Source: Justusliebigvirus VEcB. Taken from it: a stretch of DNA of 64,000 nt. A model generated the notes under the pieces. That model made no database searches, was not told the DNA's origin, and saw only the letters and a program-made list of their open reading frames with translations. The stretch lies in sequence record OZ035773.1; one strand, given 5' to 3'. Made by a program: the position numbers and the translations under genes. Below are positions 5,784 through 37,842 of the stretch, piece by piece (within the stretch, counting starts at the first letter, position 1; each line of letters starts with the position of its first letter).

Positions 5784-5784
5784 T

Positions 5785-16533: not shown

Positions 16534-16752
16534 TATTTTGAAAATTTTTATTTTTATAAAAAGGGGTGTGGGTTTCATGTACGGAAATTCACCCTCTGCA
16601 CAGTATACCCAGAGTAAGTATTATTCTATACTCTGTTAATAAAGTATTTAATTTGTTTGTTGGACTATGGTATCTGATCTTTAAAAGGCATACTATCTCT
16701 TAACTACTACTTATAACAGAACAGTAAAATCATTTTTATAAAAAGTACAAAA

Positions 16753-16949
16753 TTATTTAAAGTTTTTACAGATTTTTGGGTACAAATTTTGAAAATGAAA
16801 AGTTCAAGTTTGGTCAAAATTATTTAAAGTTTTTGTACGTATTTCTATCCAGATTTTGAAAATGAAAACTTCAATTTTTTAAAAATTCCCCAGTTTATTT
16901 AAAGTTTTTTTGCCTTTTTCCGTAGAAAAATCAAAAATGAAAAGTTCAA
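16753..16949. repeat. three tandem ~67-75-bp direct repeats (each with TTATTTAAAGTTTTT and TTGAAAATGAAAAGTTCAA)
   Basis: Both sub-motifs recur three times at ~67- and ~75-bp spacing. Confidence 0.6.
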
Positions 16950-16972
16950 TTTCGTGTTTTTATAGGTGTGTT

Positions 16973-17084
16973 AATGAGAATCATTTTCGTTTGTAAATGA
17001 GAATCATTATCATTTAATTATGTAAGTGATAATCATTCTCAGTAAGAGAATGAGAATCATTAGCAAATGAGAATTTTTCTCATT
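16973..17084. promoter_or_regulatory. cluster of five Fur-box-like palindromes (AATGAGAATCATT variants)
   Basis: Sites at ~16973, 16996, 17027, 17049, 17066; closest match TGAGAATCATTATCA vs Fur 7-1-7 core TGATAATnATTATCA. Confidence 0.4.
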
Positions 17085-17346
17085 TAGAGAATAACGCGCA
17101 GGGGTGGTGTTTGTCTCGCGCTCCCGTGTCCCCTCGCCATACAATAAGAATAGCATAACCAACAACAAAAGCAAGCGATTATTTTTATCTTTACATTTCT
17201 TTACAAATTTATTTTAGACGAGCCACCGGCGATCAACCTTCCAACCAGTGCCCCCTGGTATGTTAGCCCCGCCTTTACGCCGTGGGGGTGGCGTTTCCTC
17301 TTCTGTATGTAAAACAGTATAAGCCCGATCCCTGGGCTTGTCAAGA

Positions 17347-17613
17347 TTATTTTTTGTTTTCTTGCCAGGATAGGACACCTAACCAAAAATACATGTCGCC
17401 CCGCGCCCCTGGCGGGATCTTGCTTTCCCCGCCGCCACTGCAAGCCCATAGATAACCATTAGCGAACGGATCAAAATGATCTATTTCTTCCACCTTATGA
17501 TCGCCCAGGTTGAGAACGGTTTCAACCTTTAAGCCCGTTGCGCTTGCTACCTGGTGCACCGTGCCGCCTTGCCAGCCTAATGAGTGCATGAGGTGTAGAG
17601 TAGGATTTGTCAT
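17347..17613 (-). CDS. hypothetical protein (88 aa) in GC-rich islet
   Basis: Track ORF; SD AAAGGGCGA; local GC content far above the rest of the window; coding status uncertain. Confidence 0.3.
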   Translation of the reverse strand: MTNPTLHLMHSLGWQGGTVHQVASATGLKVETVLNLGDHKVEEIDHFDPFANGYLWACSGGGESKIPPGARGDMYFWLGVLSWQENKK

Positions 17614-17880: not shown

Positions 17881-17976
17881 ATGATCAAGAAAGAAAACAG
17901 CTTGACGGTTGGAACGATTAACGCTATCATTCTTGCCGTTCCATTTTGGGTTGTAGTTGCGGTTATTATTTTTTAA
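17881..17976 (+). CDS. 31-aa hydrophobic peptide
   Basis: Hand-translated MIKKENSLTVGTINAIILAVPFWVVVAVIIF; single TM-like segment; weak SD; downstream of promoter 17725. Confidence 0.35.
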   Translation: MIKKENSLTVGTINAIILAVPFWVVVAVIIF

Positions 17977-17984
17977 AAATATTC

Positions 17985-18042
17985 TTGACAACGTTTTTTA
18001 ATCTGATAAGATGTATCACATAGGGCGGCAATAGTGCCGCTC
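17985..18042 (+). promoter_or_regulatory. promoter + 5' stem-loop cassette 1
   Basis: TTGACA, 16 nt spacer, TAAGAT; then GGGCGGC-aatagt-GCCGCTC hairpin, then SD. Confidence 0.6.
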
Positions 18043-18064
18043 ATAACAGAAGAGAGAAATAATC

Positions 18065-18337
18065 ATGGCATCATATAGCGCATCAATGATCGTAATGGGC
18101 ATCACTGGTAAACCTATGCGCGGTGGCGGATCTTTCGCTAATATTAATATTGATGGGCGTTTATCCCTGGATGCAGCGATCACCGTGGCACGGGAAACAT
18201 TTAAAAAAGAATGCAATTTCAATAAACAAGATTATCTCGGTTTCGCTATTGAAAAAACCGCGCGCTTTGTTGATTATAAAAGCCCAAAAATGGTTGATAC
18301 TACACTAAAAGCGCAAGATGTAGCGTTTTTGCTTTAA
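18065..18337 (+). CDS. hypothetical protein (90 aa)
   Basis: Track ORF behind cassette 1. Confidence 0.55.
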   Translation: MASYSASMIVMGITGKPMRGGGSFANINIDGRLSLDAAITVARETFKKECNFNKQDYLGFAIEKTARFVDYKSPKMVDTTLKAQDVAFLL

Positions 18338-20931: not shown

Positions 20932-21026
20932 AGGAGACATAAAAATGAAACATCGTTCGACCTATCTGACAAAACGTTTTAGCTTAGATCATAAATTAGG
21001 CTATTACGGAAGAAATAGAAAATAAT

Positions 21027-21086
21027 TTGACAACGTTTAAAATTAGTGTAAGATGTATCACGTAGGGCGGGAAATGGTTTCCCGCC
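21027..21086 (+). promoter_or_regulatory. promoter + 5' stem-loop cassette 6
   Basis: TTGACA ... TAAGAT; hairpin GGCGGGAAA-tgg-TTTCCCGCC. Confidence 0.6.
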
Positions 21087-21108: not shown

Positions 21109-21336
21109 ATGGCTATCGTTATTGTTCGCGTATCCGGTACGGTTGGGATCTCCCAGGTAGTAGCAGTTATCACCGAGAAGAAAGGGGATGATCTTCACTC
21201 CTCCTTGAATAGCTGGGCGGTCGCTAACTTTGGGCAATGGTCGAGCGTTGAGTACATCGAAGCCTACCAGGTGCCAACGATTAGCCTAACCGATCTAAAT
21301 GTTGATCGCTTGTTGTGCCTGGATGGATTAAACTAA
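21109..21336 (+). CDS. hypothetical protein (75 aa)
   Basis: Track ORF behind cassette 6. Confidence 0.5.
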   Translation: MAIVIVRVSGTVGISQVVAVITEKKGDDLHSSLNSWAVANFGQWSSVEYIEAYQVPTISLTDLNVDRLLCLDGLN

Positions 21337-21344
21337 AAATAATC

Positions 21345-21402
21345 TTGACAAGATAACTAAAATCAGTAAAATGTAATGCATAGGGCGGCAATAGTGCCGC
21401 CC
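21345..21402 (+). promoter_or_regulatory. promoter + 5' stem-loop cassette 7
   Basis: TTGACA, 16 nt spacer, TAAAAT; hairpin GGGCGGCA-atag-TGCCGCCC. Confidence 0.6.
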
Positions 21403-24580: not shown

Positions 24581-24639
24581 TTGACACTAGGCAAACAACG
24601 TAGTAAAGTTTATCACATAGGGCGGCAATAGTGCCGCTC
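24581..24639 (+). promoter_or_regulatory. promoter + 5' stem-loop cassette 11
   Basis: TTGACA, 17 nt spacer, TAAAGT; hairpin GGGCGGC-aatagt-GCCGCTC (near-identical to cassette 1). Confidence 0.6.
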
Positions 24640-24660
24640 ATAACAGAAGAGAAACAAATC

Positions 24661-24831
24661 ATGATCCCAACTATGTTTTATGTATCGCGCAAAGGTCACA
24701 ATATTTTTTGGTCTGAAGATTTAAATGAAGCCATGACGTTTGCCCGTGATCGTGTTGCTATTGGTGGCGTTAATATCACCGTAACCGATGAAAACGGCAT
24801 TGAATACTATAACGGCGACGATGAAGAGTAA
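24661..24831 (+). CDS. hypothetical protein (56 aa)
   Basis: From ATG 24661 (MIPTMFYVSRKGHNIFW...) behind cassette 11. Confidence 0.5.
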   Translation: MIPTMFYVSRKGHNIFWSEDLNEAMTFARDRVAIGGVNITVTDENGIEYYNGDDEE

Positions 24832-26400: not shown

Positions 26401-26697
26401 GTGTTTAAAGGTGACTTGGTTGAAGTTAGAACAACCGAAGGTTATAGCGACGATTATAAATGCGAGATTCATTTACACAACTGGTACACGGGTAAAACTT
26501 ATGCGCTGAATCATGCGTTTATCGGCAAGGTTGAATATAGAGAAATGATCGACGAAGAAACCGGGCAAGATTTTAGCGATCATGTTTATATTCGTTCAGA
26601 AACATTAGCCGAACGTTTGATCGAGAAAATGAAAGCAAAAAATAAAATTAATTTAGCTCATTGGATTGATATAACAAACGATCCAGCTTATAAGTAA
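26401..26697 (+). CDS. hypothetical protein (98 aa), GTG start
   Basis: Track ORF; weak RBS; start uncertain. Confidence 0.35.
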   Translation: MFKGDLVEVRTTEGYSDDYKCEIHLHNWYTGKTYALNHAFIGKVEYREMIDEETGQDFSDHVYIRSETLAERLIEKMKAKNKINLAHWIDITNDPAYK

Positions 26698-26712: not shown

Positions 26713-26739
26713 AGGGCGCTTATTGCGCCCTTTCTTTTT
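26713..26739 (+). terminator. rho-independent terminator closing the cassette array
   Basis: AGGGCGC-ttatt-GCGCCCT followed by TTCTTTTT. Confidence 0.65.
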
Positions 26740-26827
26740 ACCTAAATAAAGATGATAGCTTTTACCTATCAAAAACGTTCACCGAAAAAAGTGAATAGAT
26801 CGCGGTATCGAGCTAATCAAGGAGCAG

Positions 26828-26968
26828 ATGAACAACCATACCATGAAGATCATAAGGCGTTTACAGCGTGTTTTAGACCGTTTATTTTTAATTTCTTCAT
26901 GCAACTATAGGACAAAAACAGTCTTTTTCTTGTCTTTCCTCTTAAATGATAATCATTCTTATTTATAG
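26828..26968 (+). CDS. possible small ORF (46 aa) reading into a Fur-box-like site
   Basis: Hand-translated MNNHTMKIIRRLQRVLDRLFLISSCNYRTKTVFFLSFLLNDNHSYL; SD AAGGAG 3 nt upstream; speculative. Confidence 0.25.
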   Translation: MNNHTMKIIRRLQRVLDRLFLISSCNYRTKTVFFLSFLLNDNHSYL

Positions 26969-27015
26969 CTGATTATTTATGCAATAAACTGCATAATGCA
27001 ATAATGATAATCATT
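26945..27015. promoter_or_regulatory. two Fur-box-like palindromes (AATGATAATCATT)
   Basis: Sites at ~26945-26957 and ~27003-27015; second reads ATAATGATAATCATTCTTA vs Fur consensus GATAATGATAATCATTATC. Confidence 0.45.
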
Positions 27016-27385
27016 CTTAACTTAAGACCATCTAACTTATAAAATAATAAGTTATCTAACTAAATTAAAGCTAATTATCTTACTTTTATTTATAACATAC
27101 TGTTACTATCTTATTGATAACCTTATATTAAACAACAATAATCAATGTAAATCATTACTAAGCTAACTATAATCTATCTAACCATTAAAACTATAACTAT
27201 AATCTATCGAATTGTTGCACAAAGTAACTATTAAATTGTTAGTAACATTACTAAATAATTCACATCTTATCTATTTATGATCTAATCTTTACCTCCCTAT
27301 TTATTACCTAAATAACCATTTCATGTAGTAATCATTTCATACAATAACTATAACAAGAAATATAATTCGCAAGCGTATCATTAGC

Positions 27386-27539
27386 AGCCTATGCCGGACA
27401 CATAGGCGGCTAATAATAACGCAACTACACCCCCCCACATAATAACTATCGCCGATAGTTATTATTTGTGTTTATGTAGCTTGCAACAATTGCAAGCGCA
27501 ACAATATACATGGTATATTGTATTCCCTTACATTGTTGC
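27386..27539. repeat. cluster of four palindromes/hairpins
   Basis: GCCTATG-n7-CATAGGC (~27386-27406); 27-bp perfect palindrome ATAATAACTATCG-c-CGATAGTTATTAT (~27438-27464); GCTTGCAA-caa-TTGCAAGC (~27478-27496); CAATATAC-atg-GTATATTG nested in CGCAACAAT...ATTGTTGCG (~27496-27539). Confidence 0.55.
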
Positions 27540-27618
27540 GGTGCGTTATTATTAGCTAATGTTTAGAACATTGGCTATAATATAAGCTGCATATAATAAG
27601 CTATACAATAATAAACAT

Positions 27619-27654
27619 AATGAATAATGACACTGAAATGAATAATGACACTGA
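27619..27654. repeat. perfect tandem duplication of 18-bp unit AATGAATAATGACACTGA
   Basis: Two adjacent identical copies. Confidence 0.6.
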
Positions 27655-27794
27655 TGATCATAATGCGCCACCCTCCAGGGGCGCTATGTGAACACAAAGA
27701 AATCTTTCTTGTCAAGAAAAATATCATCATTATTGCGCAAAATTATTTACATCTGAATAGATGATTTTTCATACTATTGCCCCCATATAACTTA

Positions 27795-27853
27795 CTATTT
27801 GTTGCAATGTATTCCCCTATTTGTTGAGCATAGTTATAGCCTATTTGTTGAGC
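27795..27853. repeat. three iteron-like direct repeats CTATTTGTTG(AGC) at ~22-24-bp spacing
   Basis: Copies at ~27795, 27817, 27841 (about two helical turns apart). Confidence 0.55.
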
Positions 27854-27926
27854 CTACTTTCTTAAAAGCGCAATAAATCAGAATTATCTTGATTTTTAGG
27901 TAGTTTTATAGTATAGAAAATATGCA

Positions 27927-27942
27927 AATGATAATCATTATC
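27927..27942. promoter_or_regulatory. Fur-box-like palindrome, best match
   Basis: GCAAATGATAATCATTATC matches Fur consensus GATAATGATAATCATTATC at 17 of 19 positions; overlaps a possible promoter upstream of small ORF 28006. Confidence 0.45.
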
Positions 27943-28005
27943 AGCTATCTTCCACGGGTGGCACTATTTCACACCAGATCATTTCATTTGGCAAGGTGTA
28001 GATAG

Positions 28006-28110
28006 ATGTTTAGACTTGCCAAGTTATTGATTTACTTAGAATTTATCTGTTTTGTTGTAAGTAGAGCCTTTTTTGCTCAGAAAATAATCAAAAGTCTTAT
28101 AAGTCATTGA
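28006..28110 (+). CDS. possible 34-aa hydrophobic peptide flanked by Fur-box-like sites
   Basis: Hand-translated MFRLAKLLIYLEFICFVVSRAFFAQKIIKSLISH; SD AAGGTG 7 nt upstream; speculative. Confidence 0.3.
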   Translation: MFRLAKLLIYLEFICFVVSRAFFAQKIIKSLISH

Positions 28111-28140
28111 ATGATAATGCAAATGATAATTATTCTCATT
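28109..28140. promoter_or_regulatory. composite Fur-box-like site (overlapping GATAAT hexamers)
   Basis: GAATGATAATGCAAATGATAATTATTCTCATT. Confidence 0.4.
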
Positions 28141-28512
28141 GATATTTGAGGGGGACGGTCGGGAAAAATCGGGGGGCGCTGAAAATCGCGTTAAGCACCT
28201 CTCGCAAGCGAGCAGTATTTTGCGGCAAGTTATTGATATTATTGACTTTACGCTTATGAAAAGGGGGTGTGTCGAAATAAATCGGGTATACCGGAAAATT
28301 TTTGTGGCATAGATATTTATTTGTCTATATTATGTACAAAGGGGTGTGTTAAAAATATTAGGTATATATAGAATAATTGATAGGGAAATCCTATACTAAT
28401 TCCTCCATTAATGATGTTTCTATGTTGCTGTTCTTGTAATAGATGAAAAGACGCTGTATGATGTGTGGCATGAAACGTAATCCTACAACGTAATCTTATA
28501 AAGGAGTCTGAT

Positions 28513-28878
28513 ATGTGTGTTCCTCTTAGCAGTCCACTGCTGTTAGAATTTTACAAAGCATGGATGGAAGATCATTCCTCAATGCATCGTGAGAATGTTG
28601 GTTTGTGTAATTGCCTTATGGATTACCTGGCAACCACTATGTCAAAGAAAAAACCTACGGAAGAAGATATAGAACATTTCAAGATGGTTCGTAGCAAAAC
28701 GCTGGAAGAGATGAAACTGCAATTCACGTGTGCTGGGCTATCCTCCTTCCTACCCTTTAATTATGATCTTCTGTGTTATGAAGATGAAGGTAAGACACAT
28801 TCTTGCCATACCAACCCAAAGAGATTGCAGTGGGTGAAAGACAGAATCGAAGATGCAAATAATGCTTGCATTGAATAA
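28513..28878 (+). CDS. hypothetical protein, paralog family A (121 aa)
   Basis: SD AAGGAG; shares LLxFY..W...GLC.CL.D(F/Y)L ... (K/E)R(L/V)QWV.DRI.D with 30575 and 31853 ORFs. Confidence 0.6.
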   Translation: MCVPLSSPLLLEFYKAWMEDHSSMHRENVGLCNCLMDYLATTMSKKKPTEEDIEHFKMVRSKTLEEMKLQFTCAGLSSFLPFNYDLLCYEDEGKTHSCHTNPKRLQWVKDRIEDANNACIE

Positions 28879-28960
28879 AAATGTCTGTATAGTGGTTTGC
28901 ATACCGCGCACGACGCGTTTCCATTTTCAATAAAATGTTAGCATTATGGGGAGGTAGAAA

Positions 28961-29422
28961 ATGAGACAACTATCTATACTGGAAGCACATGTGCAATGTG
29001 TTGCAGATTATGTCAAAGAACACTCAAGTTTGTTGGATGTAACCTGTGCAGTGCAAAATGATGTAGGTATTGTCTGTGTGCGACATATCTTATCTGAAAC
29101 TCGTTATGAAGTATTTCGTGCCAAGTTGTTTGGATGTGATCAAGTGCATGTAAACTTCTTGGATTCCAATTTTCGTTATGCTTTAAAAAATATTGAGGAT
29201 TATCTTCCTTGCTCTCCGACCGGATATGTGATGATGGCAGCAAATGAAGTAACACCAAACAATAGTGAGCGGGAAACTTTGTTACGGAAGAAAATACGCC
29301 AACTGCAAGTGTTGAATGAACTGAAAGAAGAGATTGAAAAAGAACTGAAAGAAGATTTTGGTATGCTTCCAAAAGACGCTTTGAAATGGTTTGATGAACT
29401 AGGAGAGGAAAGTTATGAATAA
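28961..29422 (+). CDS. hypothetical protein, paralog family B (153 aa)
   Basis: SD GGGAGG; N-terminus similar to 35458 ORF (SLL.V...V.N..G.V.V.H.LS.T.Y.VF). Confidence 0.6.
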   Translation: MRQLSILEAHVQCVADYVKEHSSLLDVTCAVQNDVGIVCVRHILSETRYEVFRAKLFGCDQVHVNFLDSNFRYALKNIEDYLPCSPTGYVMMAANEVTPNNSERETLLRKKIRQLQVLNELKEEIEKELKEDFGMLPKDALKWFDELGEESYE

Positions 29423-29591
29423 AGAAACTACTGTGTACTTAGTAACAAAGAATACCCCAGGCTGGAGCCAATGCAGCACTATACCTTACAAGATCTGTGC
29501 AACATTAGAACTAGCACAACGTGCAGAAGCAGAAGTGGATGCCATGCAATACAGCTATGGTGAAATCATTCCTTTTACTCTTGAACAATAA
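29415..29591 (+). CDS. small protein (58 aa), below track threshold
   Basis: Hand-translated MNKETTVYLVTKNTPGWSQC...; SD GGAGAGGAAA. Confidence 0.45.
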   Translation: MNKETTVYLVTKNTPGWSQCSTIPYKICATLELAQRAEAEVDAMQYSYGEIIPFTLEQ

Positions 29592-29602
29592 GGAGTTGTG
29601 TA

Positions 29603-30055
29603 ATGTTTGAAATTGGTAAAGTGTATCGTTTTAAGAACGAATCTTATATCCGTAAGTTTGCTAATGTGTCTGAGTTCAATAACAGGATTGCTTCTTTCTT
29701 AGGTGATTCCTATTTTCGTGTATTAGATATTGATGACTGGTATGGTGTCACTTCTTTGCAATCCTTAGCAGGAGAGCAAGAAATTATCACTCAAAATGAA
29801 GGAGATTTTCTTCAGTGTTACACATTGCTTGTAGAGAGTGAGTTTGAATACTTTGTAGAAGTAGTAGAGGAAGCACCAAAAAGTAAGCATGAAGAGAAAT
29901 ACCTGCTTGTAGTGGATGGAGTTCCAATCGTGGAAACCATCTCCCGTGAGGAAGTTGAAAAAGAGGCAAAACGTTACAAGCTGGATCGTACACAGAGTGT
30001 AGTTGAAGTCTATTCTCTTATTGGTGTTGCAGATGTTCATGTGAACATTGTATAA
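29603..30055 (+). CDS. hypothetical protein (150 aa)
   Basis: Track ORF; SD TAAGGAG. Confidence 0.55.
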   Translation: MFEIGKVYRFKNESYIRKFANVSEFNNRIASFLGDSYFRVLDIDDWYGVTSLQSLAGEQEIITQNEGDFLQCYTLLVESEFEYFVEVVEEAPKSKHEEKYLLVVDGVPIVETISREEVEKEAKRYKLDRTQSVVEVYSLIGVADVHVNIV

Positions 30056-30056
30056 T

Positions 30057-30269
30057 ATGTGTAATGATAGATACATTCTTCGTGTATCTGATAAGTCTCC
30101 TATGTTTGACTGGCGGGGCTGGTGGCTACTAGCTCCGATGCTAGGTCTGACTGACGTGGAAAAGGAGGCTTATGTGTATACAAAAGAAGAGATAGAAGAT
30201 AGCCTTTATTTGACAGATAACATTAAGAATGGTATCTTTGAGTGTAAATTGAAAGGAGAGGAAGAATGA
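30057..30269 (+). CDS. hypothetical protein (70 aa)
   Basis: Track ORF from TTG 30048; first in-frame ATG at 30057; weak RBS. Confidence 0.35.
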   Translation: MCNDRYILRVSDKSPMFDWRGWWLLAPMLGLTDVEKEAYVYTKEEIEDSLYLTDNIKNGIFECKLKGEEE

Positions 30270-30565
30270 CTGTTACAGAAAAACTGCGTTGTATTGCAAA
30301 GCAAAGCGGAGAAGGCTTATGGTTTCCTATTGATGAAGTTATTCAGGACTGTTATGATCAGGCTAAGACTGGCAAATACTCCAAAGCATTTAAACCATCT
30401 GTTTTCGGTTTGGATGATTATCCGACGAATGAACAAGCAAGGAAACGCCAAGTTGATTTGATTGATCTTGCTATGGAAGCACTACGAGAGCGTGGACTTA
30501 GTAAGGTGTATGCTTTAAACACCAAAGAGGGTTTTGTAGATTCAGTGATCGTAGACTGGCATTAA
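30266..30565 (+). CDS. hypothetical protein (99 aa)
   Basis: Track ORF; SD AAAGGAGAGGAAG. Confidence 0.55.
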   Translation: MTVTEKLRCIAKQSGEGLWFPIDEVIQDCYDQAKTGKYSKAFKPSVFGLDDYPTNEQARKRQVDLIDLAMEALRERGLSKVYALNTKEGFVDSVIVDWH

Positions 30566-30574
30566 GGAGCAGCC

Positions 30575-30943
30575 ATGCAAGAGAATAATAAAGTGTGTAA
30601 CATGAAAAGCAGCCCCTATTTGCTACAATTTTATGAGTGGTGGTTGGAACAAGAAGATACAAACTTTAGCAAAAAGCATTATGGTCTTTGCACGTGTCTT
30701 GTAGACTTCTTATACAACATTGCTTGGATAAAAGATGTTGAAAATGTATCAAAACTCCAATCCTCTGTACGAGAGGAAATGAAGGAACAATTTAAGAAAG
30801 CGGGTTTGAACCATTTACACCCATTTAATACAGATTTCTCACATTACTTTACGGAAACAGAGCTAGGCACTGCACACCTTAACAAAGAACGTGTACAATG
30901 GGTGATTGATCGTATTCGTGATATGGAGGAATATAATGGTTAA
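30575..30943 (+). CDS. hypothetical protein, paralog family A (122 aa)
   Basis: SD AAGGAG; family A motifs. Confidence 0.6.
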   Translation: MQENNKVCNMKSSPYLLQFYEWWLEQEDTNFSKKHYGLCTCLVDFLYNIAWIKDVENVSKLQSSVREEMKEQFKKAGLNHLHPFNTDFSHYFTETELGTAHLNKERVQWVIDRIRDMEEYNG

Positions 30944-31145
30944 GTTTAAAACCTTCTGTGCAATCACTGTTTGTCTTATTCTTGCATACGTGTTATTCTC
31001 TGGTATCATTCGTTTAGGTGAGTATATGGCAAGAGAAGCTCGTGAAAGTGAAGCTAAAAAAGAACAGTGCATCGTGTTAAAGCACCAAAGGGATGCTGAA
31101 AAATTTCTTGAACAGGATTGTGGGCGCTATGTGAATTATAATTAG
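30936..31145 (+). CDS. small membrane-anchored protein, paralog family C (69 aa)
   Basis: From ATG 30936 (SD GGAGGA): N-terminal TM helix, C-terminal KEQCIVLKHQRDAEKFLEQDC shared with 35933 ORF. Confidence 0.55.
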   Translation: MVKFKTFCAITVCLILAYVLFSGIIRLGEYMAREARESEAKKEQCIVLKHQRDAEKFLEQDCGRYVNYN

Positions 31146-31154
31146 GAGGGAAGT

Positions 31155-31403
31155 ATGTTAGATATTTTTACCTTTGATCGTGTTGGTACACCGATTACCG
31201 AAGAAGAACGTACCAAAATTGAACAAGAATTGGATGCTTTACGTGCGTCTCTTACAGACACAGCCTCACTACAACGTGAAGCTGCACATCTCACAGAGAT
31301 CACTGGTATTCAGTGGAACACGGAGTGGGTTGTAATTACAATTGAAGCGGATATTTGGGGACATGAAGAGACGCTACGTACCGGAGTAGTAACGGTTTGG
31401 TGA
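31155..31403 (+). CDS. hypothetical protein (82 aa)
   Basis: Track ORF; SD TAGGAGGGAAG. Confidence 0.55.
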   Translation: MLDIFTFDRVGTPITEEERTKIEQELDALRASLTDTASLQREAAHLTEITGIQWNTEWVVITIEADIWGHEETLRTGVVTVW

Positions 31404-31449
31404 TAGATGTTATTCTTTTGTGTTTCTTGATATATAAATAGGAGGGTTT

Positions 31450-31674
31450 ATGGTAAAACGTCTGGAATGGGATGCGTGTACTGCTCACGCTTGTCACTGT
31501 GATATTGTTGAAGATCCTAATGGAGAGATGGTGTATTATGAGGATTACGAAGCATTGCACAATGCTGTGATTGCTTTACTGGATGATATTAGCTCACGCT
31601 ATCCAGGACAACAATTCACGTGTCCACATATCCAACTATTAGCCGAACTTACGGAGTATCCAAGTGTTCCATAA
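31450..31674 (+). CDS. hypothetical Cys-rich protein, paralog family D (74 aa)
   Basis: SD TAGGAGGG; CHCDIVEDPNGEMVYYEDYEAL similar to 36818 ORF. Confidence 0.55.
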   Translation: MVKRLEWDACTAHACHCDIVEDPNGEMVYYEDYEALHNAVIALLDDISSRYPGQQFTCPHIQLLAELTEYPSVP

Positions 31675-31675
31675 T

Positions 31676-31843
31676 ATGGGTGTCCCTGAACAACTGCTCT
31701 TTATTGTAGGATTAGTAGGCTTATTGGCGGCTGGCGCTAAAGCCGCTTCTCACACGCATCACATAATGTTAAGATTTCTGTTCCTACTCCCTTCTATCCT
31801 TGTATTATTAGTCATATTGATTGATAACATTTTTCACAATTAA
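31676..31843 (+). CDS. small membrane protein (55 aa), below track threshold
   Basis: Hand-translated MGVPEQLLFIVGLVGLLAAGAKAASHTHHIMLRFLFLLPSILVLLVILIDNIFHN; two hydrophobic segments. Confidence 0.4.
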   Translation: MGVPEQLLFIVGLVGLLAAGAKAASHTHHIMLRFLFLLPSILVLLVILIDNIFHN

Positions 31844-31852
31844 GGAGAGGTT

Positions 31853-32437
31853 ATGAGTAAAATTATACCAAGCAGTTATGAATTATTGCAGTTTTATGTA
31901 TATTACTTAGACTGGGTTAATAGATCGAATGTTAAAGACAATGCGATGTTTAGTAAAAACATCTGTTTAACAGAAAGTATCTTCCGTTATTGGCACACAG
32001 GCAGAAAGTGTACACACAGTGAAGCTATGCGCATTGTAGGTGAATACCTGGAGCAATTGCAAAAAGCAGAACTTCCTGTCCTTCACCCATTCAACGAATC
32101 TAAAGAAGAATTAGAACAAGAGTGTAGAGAAGGTAAGTGCCATTTAAATGAAAAACGTATCGAATGGGTGAGGCAACGTTTAGCCGATGCAGGGAATCCT
32201 CCTAGTGACTCTGACTATACGTGGTATGATGTAGAGGGTTTAGTTCAAGGTTTTGAGGCTTGTGCTATAGGTAATACCAACTTTGCCAAAGTTTTATGCG
32301 AGGTTTATGATCTGGCAGATAAAATCCGAAATCACGGATGGAAACAAGAGCATAAAGAATCATATGAACGCCTTGACAAGATTTTCAAACAGATCTATTC
32401 TAACCACAAAGAGATGTTCCAAATGGAGGATGTGTAA
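31853..32437 (+). CDS. hypothetical protein, paralog family A, extended (194 aa)
   Basis: SD TAAGGAGAGG; family A N-terminal motifs. Confidence 0.55.
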   Translation: MSKIIPSSYELLQFYVYYLDWVNRSNVKDNAMFSKNICLTESIFRYWHTGRKCTHSEAMRIVGEYLEQLQKAELPVLHPFNESKEELEQECREGKCHLNEKRIEWVRQRLADAGNPPSDSDYTWYDVEGLVQGFEACAIGNTNFAKVLCEVYDLADKIRNHGWKQEHKESYERLDKIFKQIYSNHKEMFQMEDV

Positions 32438-33123
32438 TGAAAGAGATTATGTTTGAAGGGCATCGTTACGAAGTTCCAGACAATGCAAATTTCATGGCTC
32501 GTGATATCACTGGAGATGTGTTCTGGTTTGAAGATGAACCTGTGTTTTCTTCGAACAAACACTGGTTTTCACAACAATCTTCTTCGGAAAATATGACTTT
32601 TGGCTACGTAGAGCCTAAAGTGCGCTGCAAAGCAGCTTCTTCTTTGGTAGAAATTTCCCAAGATGATCAAGAAAATACTCCAGATGTTGTTAGTGCACTA
32701 CTGAAGTACATTGCAGAACTTGAGAAGAAAATTAAAGAAGCAGAAACTAAGGTGAAAGCACGATCAGCCATCATTGAAGCTATGTCTGAACGTATCTTAG
32801 AGCTAGAAGATTTGTGTGGAGAGGCTTATCAAGTGGTTGGTGCGCTGGCTTGTGAAGCACAAATGTTTGAAACTTCAGAACAAGTTTCACATATGTTAGA
32901 TAATTTGAGTGAATGTAAAATGATTCATGATGATGTATTGCCATTTTGTTGCAATGTTAACAAAACAGAGCAAACACAAGATTCAGAAACAGTTTATGTT
33001 CCGCTAATGTGTGTTCCAGATCATCTAAAAGGTGTATTCTCTTGTAAATGGTCGCTGTTGAGCGTTACTAATTGTGGTGAAAACTATTCTGCCAACATTG
33101 AATTGCTAAAACACGTTAAATAA
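32437..33123 (+). CDS. hypothetical protein (228 aa)
   Basis: Track ORF; SD GGAGGATG. Confidence 0.55.
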   Translation: MKEIMFEGHRYEVPDNANFMARDITGDVFWFEDEPVFSSNKHWFSQQSSSENMTFGYVEPKVRCKAASSLVEISQDDQENTPDVVSALLKYIAELEKKIKEAETKVKARSAIIEAMSERILELEDLCGEAYQVVGALACEAQMFETSEQVSHMLDNLSECKMIHDDVLPFCCNVNKTEQTQDSETVYVPLMCVPDHLKGVFSCKWSLLSVTNCGENYSANIELLKHVK

Positions 33124-33133
33124 GGAGAGTAAT

Positions 33134-33538
33134 ATGTGGTCTGTTAAAATCAAATATAATGCGCAGTATTATGGTGGAAAGCCTTACGAAGTTGTTATTT
33201 GTGACTGTATCTCTAAAGAAGTTGCACAGCTTTGTGGCGCTGGTGTTAGTGAAGCTATGAACAAAATGCATAACTCGACTGTGCGTTACCTGGATCAAGA
33301 TATTCCAGAAGATGTAAATGACTATGCTTACGAAGTTATTTACAGTGAAGGTAAGAAGCTCTCTATTGAAGATGCACTTAAAGCACTACCTGCTATGTGC
33401 AGCCCAACGCCAGAAGCAGTTAAAGAGGTTTTACCAGAATCCAACCCCGATGAATATGCTTCTATGGTTGCTTCAGATATGTGGAATCTCTGTCGAGAAA
33501 CTATGATTAAAAATCTTGTGGAAATGGCGCATGAGTAA
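33134..33538 (+). CDS. hypothetical protein (134 aa)
   Basis: Track ORF; SD TAAGGAGAG. Confidence 0.55.
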   Translation: MWSVKIKYNAQYYGGKPYEVVICDCISKEVAQLCGAGVSEAMNKMHNSTVRYLDQDIPEDVNDYAYEVIYSEGKKLSIEDALKALPAMCSPTPEAVKEVLPESNPDEYASMVASDMWNLCRETMIKNLVEMAHE

Positions 33539-33749
33539 AACACACTTTATACATCCGTTTGATCCAAAGAACAAGGCGGTTATACACCGCCGTTGGACTG
33601 AAACGCGCATTACAAAATGTCCTGTGCCAGCAGCACAGGAATATAACAAAACATATAAAGCAGAATTTGTGGAGTACACCTTTGTAAATAACAAAGGGAA
33701 GGAGGTTTATGTTCCAGAATACTGCCTTTGGATAAAATGGGAGGAATAA
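33531..33749 (+). CDS. hypothetical protein (72 aa)
   Basis: Track ORF from TTG 33516; first ATG at 33531; weak RBS. Confidence 0.35.
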   Translation: MSKTHFIHPFDPKNKAVIHRRWTETRITKCPVPAAQEYNKTYKAEFVEYTFVNNKGKEVYVPEYCLWIKWEE

Positions 33750-33916
33750 TGCAAACATTTTTTATCGACAAGTTCAATAAAAGTATGAACACGTGGATGG
33801 CAACATTCACTATGCAATTTGCGTCATTTAAAGAAGCTCAAGAATGGTGCGATCAACACAAGGATTTTGATTTTTACTATCAAGTTAATGCAAACCTTTC
33901 TCCAGAGGAGAAATAA
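33749..33916 (+). CDS. hypothetical protein (55 aa)
   Basis: From ATG 33749 with SD GGGAGGAATA; track ORF starts 7 codons upstream. Confidence 0.45.
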   Translation: MQTFFIDKFNKSMNTWMATFTMQFASFKEAQEWCDQHKDFDFYYQVNANLSPEEK

Positions 33917-33917
33917 T

Positions 33918-34262
33918 ATGTTGGCTGATATTGAAATCCTTATGTACCGACAAGGTATGATCAAAATGTGGTTAGATTCTTTTAGCAACATATACTGCAC
34001 AGTACGATCAGCAGACGAGCGTAAAACGCTTATTTTATCTGCTATTGTTGATAAACAACGTTTCTTCAAAGAAATTTTGCAAACAGGCTTCTCCGATGCA
34101 GGAGTAGAAATTGCAACTCTTAGTTTTGGGGTGCTGTCTTACTTGGAATCTGTTGTTTTATATGTCTTCTCTTTAGAGGAAGACTTGCAATTCGAAGCAT
34201 TAAAACTTATCTTAGATGCTGCAATTGACATAGAACAAAATCGAATTGATTCTTTTGAATAA
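33918..34262 (+). CDS. hypothetical protein (114 aa)
   Basis: From ATG 33918 with SD GAGGAGAAATA; track ORF extends 33 codons upstream across previous gene. Confidence 0.5.
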   Translation: MLADIEILMYRQGMIKMWLDSFSNIYCTVRSADERKTLILSAIVDKQRFFKEILQTGFSDAGVEIATLSFGVLSYLESVVLYVFSLEEDLQFEALKLILDAAIDIEQNRIDSFE

Positions 34263-34277
34263 AATAAGGAGAAAACT

Positions 34278-34736
34278 ATGAAAGAGGTTAAACATTATCC
34301 ACATGGTCGTAGTTTTGTAGCTGTATGGCATGTTCCTGCTCGTAATGAACTATTTTGTGCATCTTTTCATTACAAAGATGGACAATATTTCACCTATGAC
34401 GAGACGATGGATGATTTTATCCCAGAGTGCGATCATGGGTATACACCAATGTTCTTTAAACGTATGAAAGCTCGTTTCTTCGTTACAGATGTTGATGGTG
34501 AACCTACTTGGCACATCGAAGAAGATTGGCAAGATTCTGTAGATATTAAAGAAGCCCCAGAATGGGCTACACTACTGGTACACGTCAAAACCCCTACTCT
34601 TGACGTTATGGCGTGGGTTAATCATGATGATACCCATTACCAATACATAAATGGTAGCACAGAGATTTCTGGTGAGATTATTGGTCGTTGGAAGCCTACG
34701 AATCAGGTTGCTATTGTCGGGTATAAGACAGTATAA
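34278..34736 (+). CDS. hypothetical protein (152 aa)
   Basis: Track ORF; SD TAAGGAGAAAA. Confidence 0.55.
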   Translation: MKEVKHYPHGRSFVAVWHVPARNELFCASFHYKDGQYFTYDETMDDFIPECDHGYTPMFFKRMKARFFVTDVDGEPTWHIEEDWQDSVDIKEAPEWATLLVHVKTPTLDVMAWVNHDDTHYQYINGSTEISGEIIGRWKPTNQVAIVGYKTV

Positions 34737-34737
34737 T

Positions 34738-34932
34738 ATGAAAAAGAGTGTAGATTGGGATGATTTATCCGATTTTGAAAAATGGTTTTTAGGTAGTGGT
34801 TGTTATGCAGATGGGGATCTCGAAAGAGATCCTTCTGGAAACTACACTATGCCATTAACCCAAGGTTTTTATGAGTGCTGGTGCGCAGCACAAAACAACG
34901 TACTGAATAAGGAGACAACACAATGCAATTAA
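34738..34932 (+). CDS. hypothetical protein (64 aa)
   Basis: From ATG 34738 adjacent to previous stop; weak RBS. Confidence 0.4.
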   Translation: MKKSVDWDDLSDFEKWFLGSGCYADGDLERDPSGNYTMPLTQGFYECWCAAQNNVLNKETTQCN

Positions 34933-35162
34933 ACATCGGACAACCAATTTTTGATGCAGATACTGGTCAATATGCAGTGATTGTTGCTCGTATGAGCGGT
35001 GATGACCTTATTGTTTCAGAACTACTCGGATCAGATCCGCAACTGCGCGTAGTATGTGACCTATATCTTCGAGACGAAAGTGATCGCATTGCACTGAAAG
35101 AAGATGGTATGCTCTACTATACCTGGACTAGAGATCCTGGGGTAACGGAGGTAGAGGTATAA
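34923..35162 (+). CDS. hypothetical protein (79 aa)
   Basis: Track ORF; SD TAAGGAGACA. Confidence 0.55.
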   Translation: MQLNIGQPIFDADTGQYAVIVARMSGDDLIVSELLGSDPQLRVVCDLYLRDESDRIALKEDGMLYYTWTRDPGVTEVEV

Positions 35163-35461
35163 TGGTAAGGAATAGGGGTTTACATAAAAGAAGACACCTT
35201 ACTTACTGGCATCGTAAAGTACATGAACCTGTATCAAAGAAAGAATGGCAATATCTGCCTTATGGGAAGGAGCGAAGAAAGTATCTGTTAGCTCATTTAA
35301 GGGTACATGGTTCTCTTCCTGTTAACAGTAAGTGGCAATTGCAAACAGCTTATGACGAAGATATGAAATATCTGTTAAAGAGAGGCATTATTTGCCTTGT
35401 TAAGATAGGGCGATGGAAATCTCGTCAATCTTATATCGTACTTAAACAGGAGAAACCATGA
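35162..35461 (+). CDS. hypothetical highly basic protein (99 aa)
   Basis: Track ORF; SD ACGGAGGTAGAGG; Lys/Arg/His-rich. Confidence 0.5.
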   Translation: MVRNRGLHKRRHLTYWHRKVHEPVSKKEWQYLPYGKERRKYLLAHLRVHGSLPVNSKWQLQTAYDEDMKYLLKRGIICLVKIGRWKSRQSYIVLKQEKP

Positions 35462-35709
35462 ATATCAAAGATGTTGTAGCATATGTAGAAGATGAAGTTA
35501 AAAACCATACAAGTTTACTGAAAGTAATGGTTGTGGTTAAAAATGGCATTGGACAAGTAAACGTACAACATGTCTTATCTGATACTGTATATAATGTGTT
35601 TGAATGTAAAGACACACCTCATGGAGTACGTGTGGTGTATATTGATAACAATTTCAAAGAGTGTGTGAGACATACCTTAGAAAATGAGCTAAGGATCACA
35701 ATCTTATGA
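35458..35709 (+). CDS. hypothetical protein, paralog family B, short form (83 aa)
   Basis: SD CAGGAGAAACC; similar to N-terminus of 28961 ORF. Confidence 0.55.
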   Translation: MNIKDVVAYVEDEVKNHTSLLKVMVVVKNGIGQVNVQHVLSDTVYNVFECKDTPHGVRVVYIDNNFKECVRHTLENELRITIL

Positions 35710-35879
35710 GTTATTATGTTGTACCCTATGCCAATAAGTGGAGAGTAAGAGAAACTTGTTTTCTATTCTCCTGGTGGGCTACGTTCGGAGATGGTTGTGG
35801 AAATGATACAGGGAAGCCTGTAGAGTACGACACAAAAGAAGAATGTGAACAGTGGATAAAATTAACACAAAGATGTTGA
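35706..35879 (+). CDS. small Cys/Trp-rich protein (57 aa), below track threshold
   Basis: Hand-translated MSYYVVPYANKWRVRETCFLFSWWATFGDGCGNDTGKPVEYDTKEECEQWIKLTQRC; ATGA overlap with previous stop. Confidence 0.35.
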   Translation: MSYYVVPYANKWRVRETCFLFSWWATFGDGCGNDTGKPVEYDTKEECEQWIKLTQRC

Positions 35880-35932
35880 CACGATCTTAACTTCTTGTTA
35901 GTATCAATGTGTACTAACGATAAGGAGGGTTT

Positions 35933-36157
35933 ATGAAGTCTGTAAACAAGTTGCAACAATTTTTGTTATCAACAGCAATCTTTTTGCTTTTGTTAATTGG
36001 TATTCTGTATGGTGCATCTAACTTATACAATCTACATAATGATGTAGAACAGAATAAAGAGAAGTGCATCATTCTAAAACACAAGAAACAAGCAGAAGAT
36101 TTCTTAAAGAATAAGTGTTACAACTACATTGATTATGAGGAGACAAACAATGATTAA
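35933..36157 (+). CDS. small membrane-anchored protein, paralog family C (74 aa)
   Basis: SD TAAGGAGGG; N-terminal TM helix, C-terminal KEKCIILKHKKQAEDFLKNKC motif. Confidence 0.55.
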   Translation: MKSVNKLQQFLLSTAIFLLLLIGILYGASNLYNLHNDVEQNKEKCIILKHKKQAEDFLKNKCYNYIDYEETNND

Positions 36158-36392
36158 AGAATTAGGTATGCGAGTATACAGTGAGTGGACTCCAAGCAAT
36201 GGCCCAGGAGTTGTTGCAGCTAAATGTATCAATGGTCGTATTGAGTACCTGGAAGGGTATGAAGATAATGAAGAGTTAGTAGATTATGCTAAATCTTTTA
36301 TTGAAGATGATACAGACTTTATTGTATTATATGATACAGGAGAGTTAGAGTATGGATATGATGGAGATGGGGATATCTTTGAACTTCAATAA
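36150..36392 (+). CDS. hypothetical acidic protein (80 aa)
   Basis: From ATG 36150 with SD GAGGAGACAAACA. Confidence 0.5.
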   Translation: MIKELGMRVYSEWTPSNGPGVVAAKCINGRIEYLEGYEDNEELVDYAKSFIEDDTDFIVLYDTGELEYGYDGDGDIFELQ

Positions 36393-36486
36393 GAGTAGTA
36401 AGTAAGGTATAAAGAGTATATAGTTAGTTATAGAGTTAGTAACATTACATATACTCTTTCTATGTATAACATGGAATATTCTCTAC

Positions 36487-36540
36487 CTCGCTATCGCTCG
36501 GTATATAAGATTAGGGTAGCATGTTTTTTACGAAAAGTAA
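36487..36540 (+). repeat. conserved ~55-bp non-coding element, copy B (CTCGCTATCGCTCG ... TTAGGGTAGCATGTTTTTT)
   Basis: Matches element at ~9584-9640. Confidence 0.4.
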
Positions 36541-36599
36541 AACTGTTTGTACCGATTGATAGCAGGTTTTTAATAGATTTTATCTATGAGGAGTAGAAA

Positions 36600-36818
36600 G
36601 TGTACAAATTATATAAAGCAAAAGATAAGTTTACGGGTAATACATCTGGTTTCTATGTAACACCTCGGGGTGTTGCTGTGTTCGATTGGATCTCCGGTAC
36701 TCCAGATCGGGAAATGATCTCTCTTGTAAAACTGTCGGAACAAGAGTACACTTACGGTGACATTACAACATTCTATTCTCGTGCAGAAAATCCAAAACTG
36801 ATTGCGGAGTGGGAATAA
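36600..36818 (+). CDS. hypothetical protein (72 aa), GTG start
   Basis: Track ORF; SD GAGGAG 7 nt upstream of GTG. Confidence 0.45.
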   Translation: MYKLYKAKDKFTGNTSGFYVTPRGVAVFDWISGTPDREMISLVKLSEQEYTYGDITTFYSRAENPKLIAEWE

Positions 36819-37081
36819 TGGTTACACGATATGACTTAGAGGTGTACAGCCAAGGTGCTGCTGGTCAATGTGATATTGTACCAGATCCAGAAGGGGATTA
36901 TGTTCTTCTTGCTGATTACAATAAGCTAGAAGAAAGACTTCTGGCTGTGTATGCTAAAGAGAACAAAACAATCTGCCCTTATTGCAGTGGAATGGGTTGG
37001 GTAGTTGCAGATGTTGGACAAATGTATGAATGTGTGCCTTGTAAAACCACAGGATTTATTGAAAAGGATACTGACAAATGA
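36818..37081 (+). CDS. hypothetical Cys-rich protein, paralog family D (87 aa)
   Basis: From ATG 36818; QCDIVPDPEGDYVLLADYNKLEE similar to 31450 ORF; C-terminal CPYCSG...CVPC. Confidence 0.5.
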   Translation: MVTRYDLEVYSQGAAGQCDIVPDPEGDYVLLADYNKLEERLLAVYAKENKTICPYCSGMGWVVADVGQMYECVPCKTTGFIEKDTDK

Positions 37082-37326
37082 CTGTAGCAGATAAAATGAG
37101 AGAACTGGCAGAAAACGCAGAACTTAACAAAGCAAAAGAGAGTTTACAAAACGTCTACGCGTATATTGAAAGAGCAGCTAAAGATGGAGACAGAGAAGCT
37201 GCTATATACACGCTCTATCCAACTTTCGTAAAAGTTAGCTTGGATGCTGAAGGTTTTTCAACTTTTATTGATACAGAAACATCTCATTACGATGAAAACT
37301 TTACTCGAATAGTTATTCGATGGTAA
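37078..37326 (+). CDS. hypothetical protein (82 aa)
   Basis: Track ORF; 4-nt overlap with previous gene. Confidence 0.5.
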   Translation: MTVADKMRELAENAELNKAKESLQNVYAYIERAAKDGDREAAIYTLYPTFVKVSLDAEGFSTFIDTETSHYDENFTRIVIRW

Positions 37327-37431
37327 ATTTCTGATATTTATGCGCCCTGGCTACCTGGGCGTAATAAATTCAGCTTATATTTGATCCGCGCCTTCGGCGC
37401 TTAGGCAAAGCCACGCCACACAGGAGAGTTT

Positions 37432-37842
37432 ATGTTCAAATGGTTAAAAGAGTTTCTAACATCTTTGGCAGAACCTAAGCAAGATGTTATTAAAAGCTCT
37501 ATCACAGGAAAACCGCTTGTTATAGTTACAGGCGGCTTTGGTCATGGGTTTTCTCTTAAACAAACAGATATAGGTTTACAGGGATCTTTGATTAGTTTTA
37601 GAATCACTCAATTAGGAGATAATAGACAAACAATCTTAGACCTTTTCAATGGGGAATTTGATGACTATTTATCCAAGAGTGGTAAAGAACGTCTGATCGA
37701 GCATATAAAACACCGCTATGAGCATGGTGGTTACTACTTAGATACAAAACGTAATGCACAAGGTGATCTTGACATAGTTCGTATAGCGTGGGATAATGAA
37801 TTTAAAACTAAACTTGGTAAACTTCTGGAGGAGTTATGGTAA
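37432..37842 (+). CDS. hypothetical protein (136 aa)
   Basis: Track ORF; SD CAGGAGAG. Confidence 0.55.
   Translation: MFKWLKEFLTSLAEPKQDVIKSSITGKPLVIVTGGFGHGFSLKQTDIGLQGSLISFRITQLGDNRQTILDLFNGEFDDYLSKSGKERLIEHIKHRYEHGGYYLDTKRNAQGDLDIVRIAWDNEFKTKLGKLLEELW

Follow-up and report, generated by a model that had tools for sequence, protein, structure and literature searches.

A gene-free gap of ~1.8 kb (26740-28512) lies in the 64,000-nucleotide stretch of Justusliebigvirus VEcB DNA analysed here (record OZ035773.1; hereafter the window), and it is most probably the terminal or concatemer-junction region of the phage genome, the linear, non-permuted virion DNA of which would be bounded by a short direct terminal repeat (DTR). 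An earlier note on this DNA had presented the gap as a candidate replication origin or regulatory hub. The ends of virion DNA, which were absent from the readings considered there, are a better-supported identity for the gap than an origin; the description of the gap as non-coding DNA that is conserved, functional and cis-acting, and whose repeats, palindromes and Fur-type sites are real, was borne out, and the evidence offered for an origin was not. Terminal-repeat regions of this kind are known, and that of the phage phi92 is already annotated; the details are undescribed. New here are conserved cut-site motifs, a hairpin element supported by covariation, and predicted Fur operators of the host type, none of which was found described in the literature searched.

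Judged by sequence similarity, the source of the window is a virulent phi92/phAPEC8-like E. coli myophage of the Stephanstirmvirinae. The gap region shares 94-95% identity with Justusliebigvirus E. coli myophages (phi92-like; Stephanstirmvirinae), and its similarity to Phapecoctavirus (phAPEC8-like) is weaker and patchy. The comparison set consisted of 16 genomes of both genera, followed by 7 further viral or metagenomic contigs, which include at least one more divergent lineage (L044, L046, L049). The open reading frame (ORF) listing contained no ORF of 60 aa or more in 26740-28512, as had been stated before. The gap is real and was retained in every relative examined, which answers the earlier note's suggestion that conservation be looked at. 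Identity between genera is ~60% overall; the between-genus identity score along the gap averages ~0.47, and the within-genus score is ~0.95 outside the variable stretches. Distant gp30.8-linked IMG/VR loci (13 in number) were also considered and rejected, as they do not share the architecture of the gap.

Predicted terminal repeat and its junctions

The features that define the predicted genome ends are as follows (the bar in a motif marks the predicted cut).

27795..27850, + strand: three CTATTTGTTG copies (the 'iterons' of the earlier note), the third abutting the repeat boundary
27846..27853, + strand: left junction TGTTG|AGC, predicted cut between 27850 and 27851
27851..28193, + strand: predicted 343-bp direct terminal repeat, by homology to the phi92 repeats at both ends
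28184..28196, + strand: right junction CGCGTTA|AGC, predicted cut between 28193 and 28194

The RefSeq record of phi92 (NC_023693) carries identical 343-bp left and right terminal repeats as annotated features (PHI92_DTR-L and PHI92_DTR-R), and this repeat aligns to 27851-28193 of the window at 94% identity. Its left edge falls directly after the third CTATTTGTTG copy (...CCTATTTGTTG|AGCCTAC...) and its right edge inside a G-rich patch (...AAAATCGCGTTA|AGCACC...). Two independent lines point to the same boundaries. For BME3, a 342-bp DTR was determined by PhageTerm (PMC12210895), and the two physical ends of the BME3 record lie at the same boundaries within 1 nt. In Schickermooser, a member of Phapecoctavirus, the two record ends carry an exact duplication of 329 bp, which falls in the same gap and shows the same layout. 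The position and boundaries of the repeat are thus shown in three relatives, and the left junction is placed where the start of the phi92 left repeat, the BME3 record end and the start of the Schickermooser repeat all agree; by homology, the ends of the present phage are predicted at the same sites. In addition to the ~94% identity, the common boundaries and the length of 342-343 bp, the phi92 and BME3 repeats have the same flanking genes (a gp248 homologue upstream and gp001-type genes downstream). This is in agreement with reports that Stephanstirmvirinae end in DTRs (PMC12695924) and that in LL12, an rV5-like phage, a non-permuted redundancy of 459 bp is located in a non-coding region (PMC6658697).

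The two junction motifs, TGTTG|AGC and CGCGTT(A/C)|AGC, were found in 16/16 genomes and in 7/7 further contigs. Everywhere they occur in the same order, at a spacing of 329-401 bp, though their surroundings diverge to ~60% identity.

Several points weigh against the assignment of the gap to the genome ends. The repeat is single in the window, as expected of a circularly closed assembly, so its duplication at both ends is not visible here; the ends of this phage are predicted from homology to relatives; and the phi92 ends were taken from its RefSeq annotation. The BME3 record is itself in poor order: it contains Ns, an odd duplication and a DTR feature that is displaced by 73 bp. With only 7 nt, the junction core GTTRAGC would not be unique in a genome of 147 kb and hence cannot be the entire recognition signal. 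None of the large ORFs of the window was identified as a terminase gene. Finally, the repeat takes up only 343 of the ~1,800 gene-free bases, and the remainder may do other jobs, possibly replication.

The annotated DTR feature of BME3 had at first seemed to contradict the phi92 boundaries; it is this feature that is offset, and the record ends agree with phi92. In the same record (PP239276), Ns occur in the end region, and the equivalent of 27392-28265 seems to be present in an extra copy, joined in the loop of hairpin 1 (described below); the extra copy is probably an assembly artefact at the palindromes and the repeat.

The earlier note had described the CTATTTGTTG copies as iterons which, next to AT-rich palindromes, would form a classic origin signature. 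The three exact copies were confirmed (starts at 27795, 27817 and 27841; spacing of 22 and 24 bp), but the signature did not hold, as the copies vary in number, are absent from the sister genus and coincide with the left repeat boundary. Since both copy 2 and copy 3 run on into AGC, they repeat the left-junction sequence TGTTG|AGC. They lie in the most variable part of the gap (27778-27857), where within-genus identity is 0.21-0.66 vs ~0.95 elsewhere. The 9-mer core TATTTGTTG occurs once in EC_OE_11, KKE7M, inny and PATM, twice in phi92 and KMB37, three times in this window and KKP_3264, and five times in AMO3598; Paula has a single variant copy, CATTTGTTG, in its place. The full 10-mer CTATTTGTTG is absent from the Phapecoctavirus gaps, and in tuntematon its own version has been duplicated independently, as two ATGTTGAGCA copies. 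Because their number differs among members of the genus (1 to 5) and the sister genus lacks the 10-mer, the copies are not origin iterons; they are best read as local, copy-number-variable duplications of the left-junction sequence and not as a conserved initiator-binding array. No structure was detected in this stretch (fold z = +0.1). The GC-rich hairpins previously indicated near 28150-28215, around the right junction, fold no better than shuffled sequence (z = +1.5).

Two further observations concern the repeat and its left edge. In lineages other than Justusliebigvirus (L032, L042-L046, L049), a short candidate hairpin seen by inspection ends 3-5 nt upstream of TGTTG|AGC, with sequences that vary by lineage (AACCCT..AGGGTT, CCGCC..GGCGG, TATCGC..GCGATA); in Justusliebigvirus, the CTATTTGTTG repeats stand at this position. 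In AMO3598, a 98-bp segment internal to the repeat (the equivalent of 27960-28057) is inverted relative to all other genomes, with 96% identity when reversed. It is flanked by the short imperfect inverted repeats CAGATCATTTC / GAATTTATCTG and includes the IHF-consensus site listed in the next section.

By analogy with the T7-type paradigm, head-to-tail concatemers formed late in infection would carry the gap region between successive genomes. The terminase would recognise the junction region and cut sequence-specifically at TGTTG|AGC on the left and at CGCGTTA|AGC on the right, and the 343-bp repeat would be regenerated such that each packaged genome has a copy at both ends. Packaging of T7 and T3 begins at the concatemer junction (PMC3276506, PMC3896407). 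The T7/T3 junction resembles the present region in its short non-permuted repeat, its fixed cuts and the presence of repeats and control signals in gene-free end DNA; it differs in that the phage studied here is a ~147 kb myovirus, the junction motifs are unrelated in sequence and Fur-like boxes of the host type lie inside the repeat. To our knowledge, no phage RNA polymerase gene is expected for this group, and none was seen in the window.

The true ends and cut-site motifs of phi92-like phages matter for correct assembly and annotation, as several public records annotate 8-12 spurious small genes over the gap or break the genome inside it. They would also be useful for the engineering of broad-host-range therapeutic phi92-like phages and of packaging-competent vectors.

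Fur-like boxes and promoter-like sites

Four Fur-box-like sites had been pointed out in the gap, and all four (26942, 27000, 27924 and 28119) were recovered in a scan with the 19-bp consensus GATAATGATAATCATTATC, with 5, 3, 2 and 4 mismatches, respectively. Along with the other predicted host-protein site, they are given below; none of the boxes is assigned to a strand.

26942-26960: Fur-like box 1, 5 mismatches
26977-26996: conserved small palindrome, flanked by Fur-like boxes 1 and 2
27000-27018: Fur-like box 2, 3 mismatches, between-genus identity 0.79
27924-27942 (part of 27916..27944): Fur-like box 3, the best site, 2 mismatches, GAAAATAT[GC]AAATGATAATCATTAT
28020..28032, - strand: match to the IHF consensus, WATCAANNNNTTR, inside the repeat; a weak, degenerate motif, to be taken as no more than a lead
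28113..28143: composite Fur-like box 4, near the right end of the repeat, between-genus identity 0.75

When matches with at most 3 mismatches were counted over the whole window, 7 were found vs 0.03 expected, and all but one lay within two gene-free stretches. The boxes are conserved in position in at least 3 lineages, and between-genus conservation peaks at boxes 2 and 4. In the relatives, Fur-like sites stand at matching positions: ~330-390 nt upstream of the hairpin element, in the early part of the repeat (in most lineages) and close to the right end of the repeat (in every lineage). At the position of boxes 1 and 2, Fur-like boxes occur in Phapecoctavirus (TGCAATGATAACCATTATC) and in two further lineages; box 4 is present in every lineage, with two mismatches in phiWec188, PsgM04F and the contigs L042 and L043.

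The best box was also compared with E. coli genomes, and a match of ~25 nt was found in 5406/5426, located in the fepB-entC intergenic region. This region we take to be the classic Fur-repressed divergent promoter and Fur operator. Phage and host have in common GAAAATAT and the adjacent, identical 16-mer AAATGATAATCATTAT, with a 2-nt indel between them; in the O157:H7 record examined, the 16-mer starts 46 nt upstream of the entC start codon. Unlike the fepB-entC operator, the phage site lies in the terminal repeat of a virulent phage, with no siderophore gene nearby and no clear overlapping promoter.

These observations raise the possibility that the gap serves mainly to sense host iron or to capture Fur, a role that may coexist with a terminus function. 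In one version, the boxes of the gap and the tandem array at 16970-17090 (see below) would repress phage promoters when iron is plentiful. In the other, the multiplying phage genomes would soak up Fur, and host iron uptake would be de-repressed for the benefit of the iron-dependent ribonucleotide reductase of the phage, a class I enzyme whose large and small subunits are both encoded in the window. The extreme enrichment of boxes, their conserved positions and the 16-mer identical to the fepB-entC control region speak for such a role. However, no strong promoter overlaps the boxes, which are themselves predicted sites; the only promoter-like sites that overlap or adjoin them are weak (at most 9 of 12). 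Furthermore, the halves of a Fur box resemble the -10 hexamer, and some of the matches may be promoter-like AT-rich palindromes. No paper describing Fur boxes in this virulent phage group was found in the literature searched, and the idea of a Fur sponge is conjecture. On balance, it is somewhat unlikely that iron sensing or Fur capture is the main job of the gap. If the boxes are functional, infection by a virulent phage would be tied to the iron status of the host, which would be relevant in the iron-limited gut and during infection.

With the gap as the terminal region, Fur and perhaps IHF would bind in and beside the repeat, recruited for an iron-responsive event at the genome end or for DNA shaping. 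In lambda, the cos site has cohesive ends, and a site for IHF, a host architectural protein, is found in the terminase region. The likeness lies in host-protein sites within a terminase recognition region, with one conserved IHF-consensus match in the repeat here; this consensus is retained in phi92 and Phapecoctavirus despite changes at its N positions. The differences are that a DTR is predicted here in place of cohesive ends, that the dominant predicted host sites are of the Fur type and that the IHF site is likewise a prediction.

As to the proposed regulatory hub, conserved sites for host factors were found, but strong sigma-70 promoters and the early-promoter cassette of the phage were not. 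The best sigma-70-type site in the gap scores 10 of 12 (at 27114), and none reaches 11 of 12. Promoter-like sites in the gap are not significantly enriched (19 vs 15.9 +/- 4.1; 8 vs 3.9 +/- 2.1), and the repeated early-promoter cassette found at 17974, 21019 and 21334 is absent from it. A sigma-70 promoter hub was rejected on these grounds. The cassette itself (17974-18067, 21019-21070, 21334-21400 and 24611-24663) consists of a near-consensus TTGACA-16/17-TAAGAT promoter followed by a GGGCGGCAATAGTGCCGC hairpin. On the + strand, seven sigma-70 sites reach at least 11 of 12 matches in the early block between 19904 and 25742, and almost none does so in 28513-37700; hence, the gene blocks before and after the gap may differ in temporal class.

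The second gene-free stretch of the window (16534-17600) contains three ~70-bp direct repeats (16732-16952), tandem Fur-like boxes and a GC-rich segment. The boxes, four to five in tandem (AATGAGAATCATT), occupy 16970-17090. The segment at ~17066-17313 is 70-85% identical in phages of many genera (CR3 and CR9 of Cronobacter, KB57 of Klebsiella, Erwinia phage DNA and the E. coli phage 4MG), in which it is mostly unannotated. For this second stretch, Rfam gave no match, and its folding was no more stable than expected (z about +0.5). A search of E. coli with its box AATGAGAATCATT matched only mobile-element DNA and was set aside as uninformative.

The four-hairpin element and the question of an origin

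The 27-bp perfect palindrome reported at 27439-27465 (13-nt arms, 1-nt centre) was confirmed, as were three further hairpins (27387-27407, 27479-27497 and 27501-27521). A perfect 15-bp long-range inverted repeat encloses most of them, and together they form a single multi-branch element, which is not assigned to a strand.

27387..27556: four-hairpin multi-branch element, 170 nt, from folding and covariation
27387-27407: hairpin 1, just upstream of the closing stem
27409-27423 / 27542-27556: 15-bp closing stem, enclosing three hairpins
within 27387-27556: hairpin 2, containing the 27-bp palindrome at 27439-27465
27479-27497: hairpin 3
27497-27541: hairpin 4

The element folds with z of -6.9 on the + strand and -7.4 on the - strand. 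Covariation was assessed over 17 distinct sequences from at least 3 lineages, and also in a 12-sequence version. In the 17-sequence set, 98.4% of the cells of the 47 element pairs were paired, and 11 of the pairs showed compensatory change vs 0-4 when the partners were slid by 1-3 columns; the covariation score was 0.187, with a maximum of 0.049 in the slid controls. In divergent lineages, the sequence of hairpin 2 is almost wholly replaced and its pairing is still perfect. Only this phage and a few others have the 27-bp palindrome in perfect form; in most relatives it carries a C.A mismatch.

The position of the element is 295-464 bp to the left (upstream) of the left junction. In T7, a hairpin forms at an inverted repeat just left of the junction during repeat duplication, and the present cluster of hairpins resembles it. 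The element is the best candidate for a cis-signal of packaging or end processing, and could act as a terminase recognition site or as the hairpin used for repeat duplication. Together with the junction motifs, it would offer concrete cis-signals for a class of packaging known mainly from work on T7. A broader proposal can be put forward only tentatively: in this lineage of strictly virulent coliphages, with predicted host-type Fur operators in the terminal repeat, its flank and a second gap, iron might gate a genome-end event (early transcription, end protection or packaging) through Fur, or Fur might be titrated to feed ribonucleotide reductase, and the four-hairpin DNA element might represent a novel signal by which short-DTR myoviruses package their DNA or duplicate its ends.

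A replication origin would place the start of DNA synthesis at the AT-rich tract and the palindromes, with an initiator bound at the CTATTTGTTG repeats, and would be compatible with a terminus function. The tract concerned is listed here.

26878..27357: AT-rich tract of ~480 bp, 18-28% GC per 60-nt bin, no strand

The tract adjoins the conserved, covariation-supported hairpin cluster, and the gap is kept in all relatives, both of which are in favour of an origin. In T7, replisomes built on a PolA-type polymerase and a primase-helicase of the gp4 type initiate at origins that are AT-rich and primed by transcription and have no DnaA boxes. Proteins of these two types are encoded by the related phage rV5 (PMC3606486), which also speaks for an origin. 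N4, a phage with a DTR of ~400-500 bp, starts DNA synthesis near its ends through inverted repeats that lie close to the end (PMC3896407). It has in common with the present phage a terminal repeat and inverted repeats near an end; the hairpin element here differs in lying ~640-810 bp from the predicted right physical end and not at the 3' terminus.

Against an origin stands the behaviour of the putative iterons given above. Moreover, the gap has no DnaA boxes, even under a relaxed pattern, and no unwinding element of the 13-mer type; GATC occurs there at 2.75 per kb vs 4.86 per kb window-wide and does not cluster; and no initiator-like (Rep-type) gene is adjacent. The turning points of GC skew follow the direction of transcription and do not mark the gap, a conclusion that was also reached for rV5 by its authors (PMC3606486). 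Within the AT-rich tract, 27218-27337 has no counterpart in Phapecoctavirus, and the tract as a whole lies ~440 bp or more from the CTATTTGTTG repeats. Iteron-type origins of plasmids or of the lambda ori type are similar in having short direct repeats about two helical turns apart and an AT-rich tract nearby, but the repeats here are not conserved, are accompanied by neither an initiator gene nor DnaA boxes and coincide with a predicted cleavage junction. An origin in the gap is therefore unlikely, including one of a T7-like, transcription-primed kind, for which nothing specific was found.

The four-hairpin element could alternatively be a structured non-coding RNA gene, or a cis-acting RNA element, expressed from the gap. 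Its stable folding on both strands and the 11 covarying pairs would suit such an RNA, and a weak promoter-like site between Fur boxes 1 and 2 faces rightward to the element. On the other hand, the Rfam check proposed in the earlier note gave no relevant match, either in a permissive scan of the gap or at the gathering threshold over the whole window. No conserved promoter lies immediately upstream (the TATAAT at 27361 is lost in Phapecoctavirus) and no terminator downstream; taken together, no conserved promoter or terminator was seen around the element. The wobble positions that would be tolerated on one strand only are split between both senses (pairs 31/183 and 122/163 vs 70/80, 67/83 and 71/79), as expected of DNA hairpins or cruciforms. 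Since the wobbles show no strand preference and neither an Rfam match nor a conserved promoter or terminator was found, a DNA-level structure (hairpins or cruciform) is favoured, and an RNA is quite unlikely.

The first-step-transfer stop region of T5 is gene-free, with dense repeats and palindromes and host-factor boxes near the terminal repeat, and a comparable injection-stop region that pauses DNA entry near the genome end would fit the anatomy of the gap. Such a region is nevertheless very improbable here: nothing points to DNA transfer in two steps in this phage group, and what the gap flanks is a repeat of 343 bp and not a multi-kb pre-early region.

Neighbouring genes and other features

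The window covers the early and DNA-metabolism portion of the phage genome. Apart from the ribonucleotide reductase, it encodes a UvrD-type helicase with an intein, an AAA ATPase, a NADAR protein and many small ORFs; in the UvrD-like helicase ORF (3009-5822, - strand, 937 aa), Pfam places the intein/Hint insertion between the helicase domains. A scan for tRNA and tmRNA genes found none. The remaining features in and beside the gap are the following.

26713..26731, + strand: intrinsic terminator, hairpin and T-run, from the terminator scan, closing the Gp30.8-like gene
26738..26826, no strand: conserved non-coding block including the invariant TATCGAGCTAATCAA, between-genus identity 0.72-0.81
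26828..26968, + strand: 46-aa ORF with an AAGGAG ribosome-binding site, intact in Justusliebigvirus only
27619..27654, no strand: 18-bp tandem duplication, variable and lineage-specific, within-genus identity 0.54, single copy in phi92
28261-28292 and 28338-28377, + strand: two-copy motif GGGGTGTGT..AAATA..GGTATA, between-genus identity 0.83 at 28338-28377
28434..28462, + strand: weak sigma-70-like site TTGTAA-17-TATGAT, 9 of 12, ahead of the first gene that follows the gap; conserved in the genus but not beyond it

Of the ORFs that flank the gap, one encodes a Gp30.8-like protein and three have no Pfam family. The left neighbour is the Gp30.8-like gene, a homologue of phi92 gp248, which is the final gene of the phi92 record; homologues of phi92 gp001 and gp002 lie on the right side. 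The terminator that closes the Gp30.8-like gene has a DNA fold z of -4.9, and it is annotated as a terminator in PATM, Paula and phAPEC8. The Gp30.8-like gene itself (26401-26697) would encode 98 aa from its first possible start vs 127 aa annotated in relatives; its Pfam match starts at profile position 34, and the phi92 alignment begins only at 26401. The N-terminus of the protein thus differs or is truncated here.

The first gene after the gap, ORF 28513-28878, has no Pfam family, and the segment 28411-28823 is missing from phi92. Other relatives have different genes at this position, so the slot for the first gene past the left genome end is variable. Relative to phi92, the present phage also has three CTATTTGTTG copies vs two related ones, an additional copy of the 18-bp unit and a perfect, not mismatched, 27-bp palindrome. 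The 18-bp tandem duplication had been described as perfect and is so. The paired motif GGGGTGTGT..AAATA..GGTATA may be a control element for the downstream gene block.

Four ORFs of 46-57 aa in the gap were considered as genes and rejected, since for none of them is coding capacity kept from one genus to another: three are already disrupted inside the genus, and the fourth is without a start codon in the sister genus. In the 46-aa ORF at 26828-26968, the ATG is changed to ACG in all six Phapecoctavirus-type gaps, and some genomes have stops; it is probably not a conserved gene. Several public records carry 8-12 'hypothetical proteins' of 30-50 aa annotated across the gap. These small ORFs are not conserved, some of them overlap the terminal repeat and the hairpin element, and they are very likely over-annotation.

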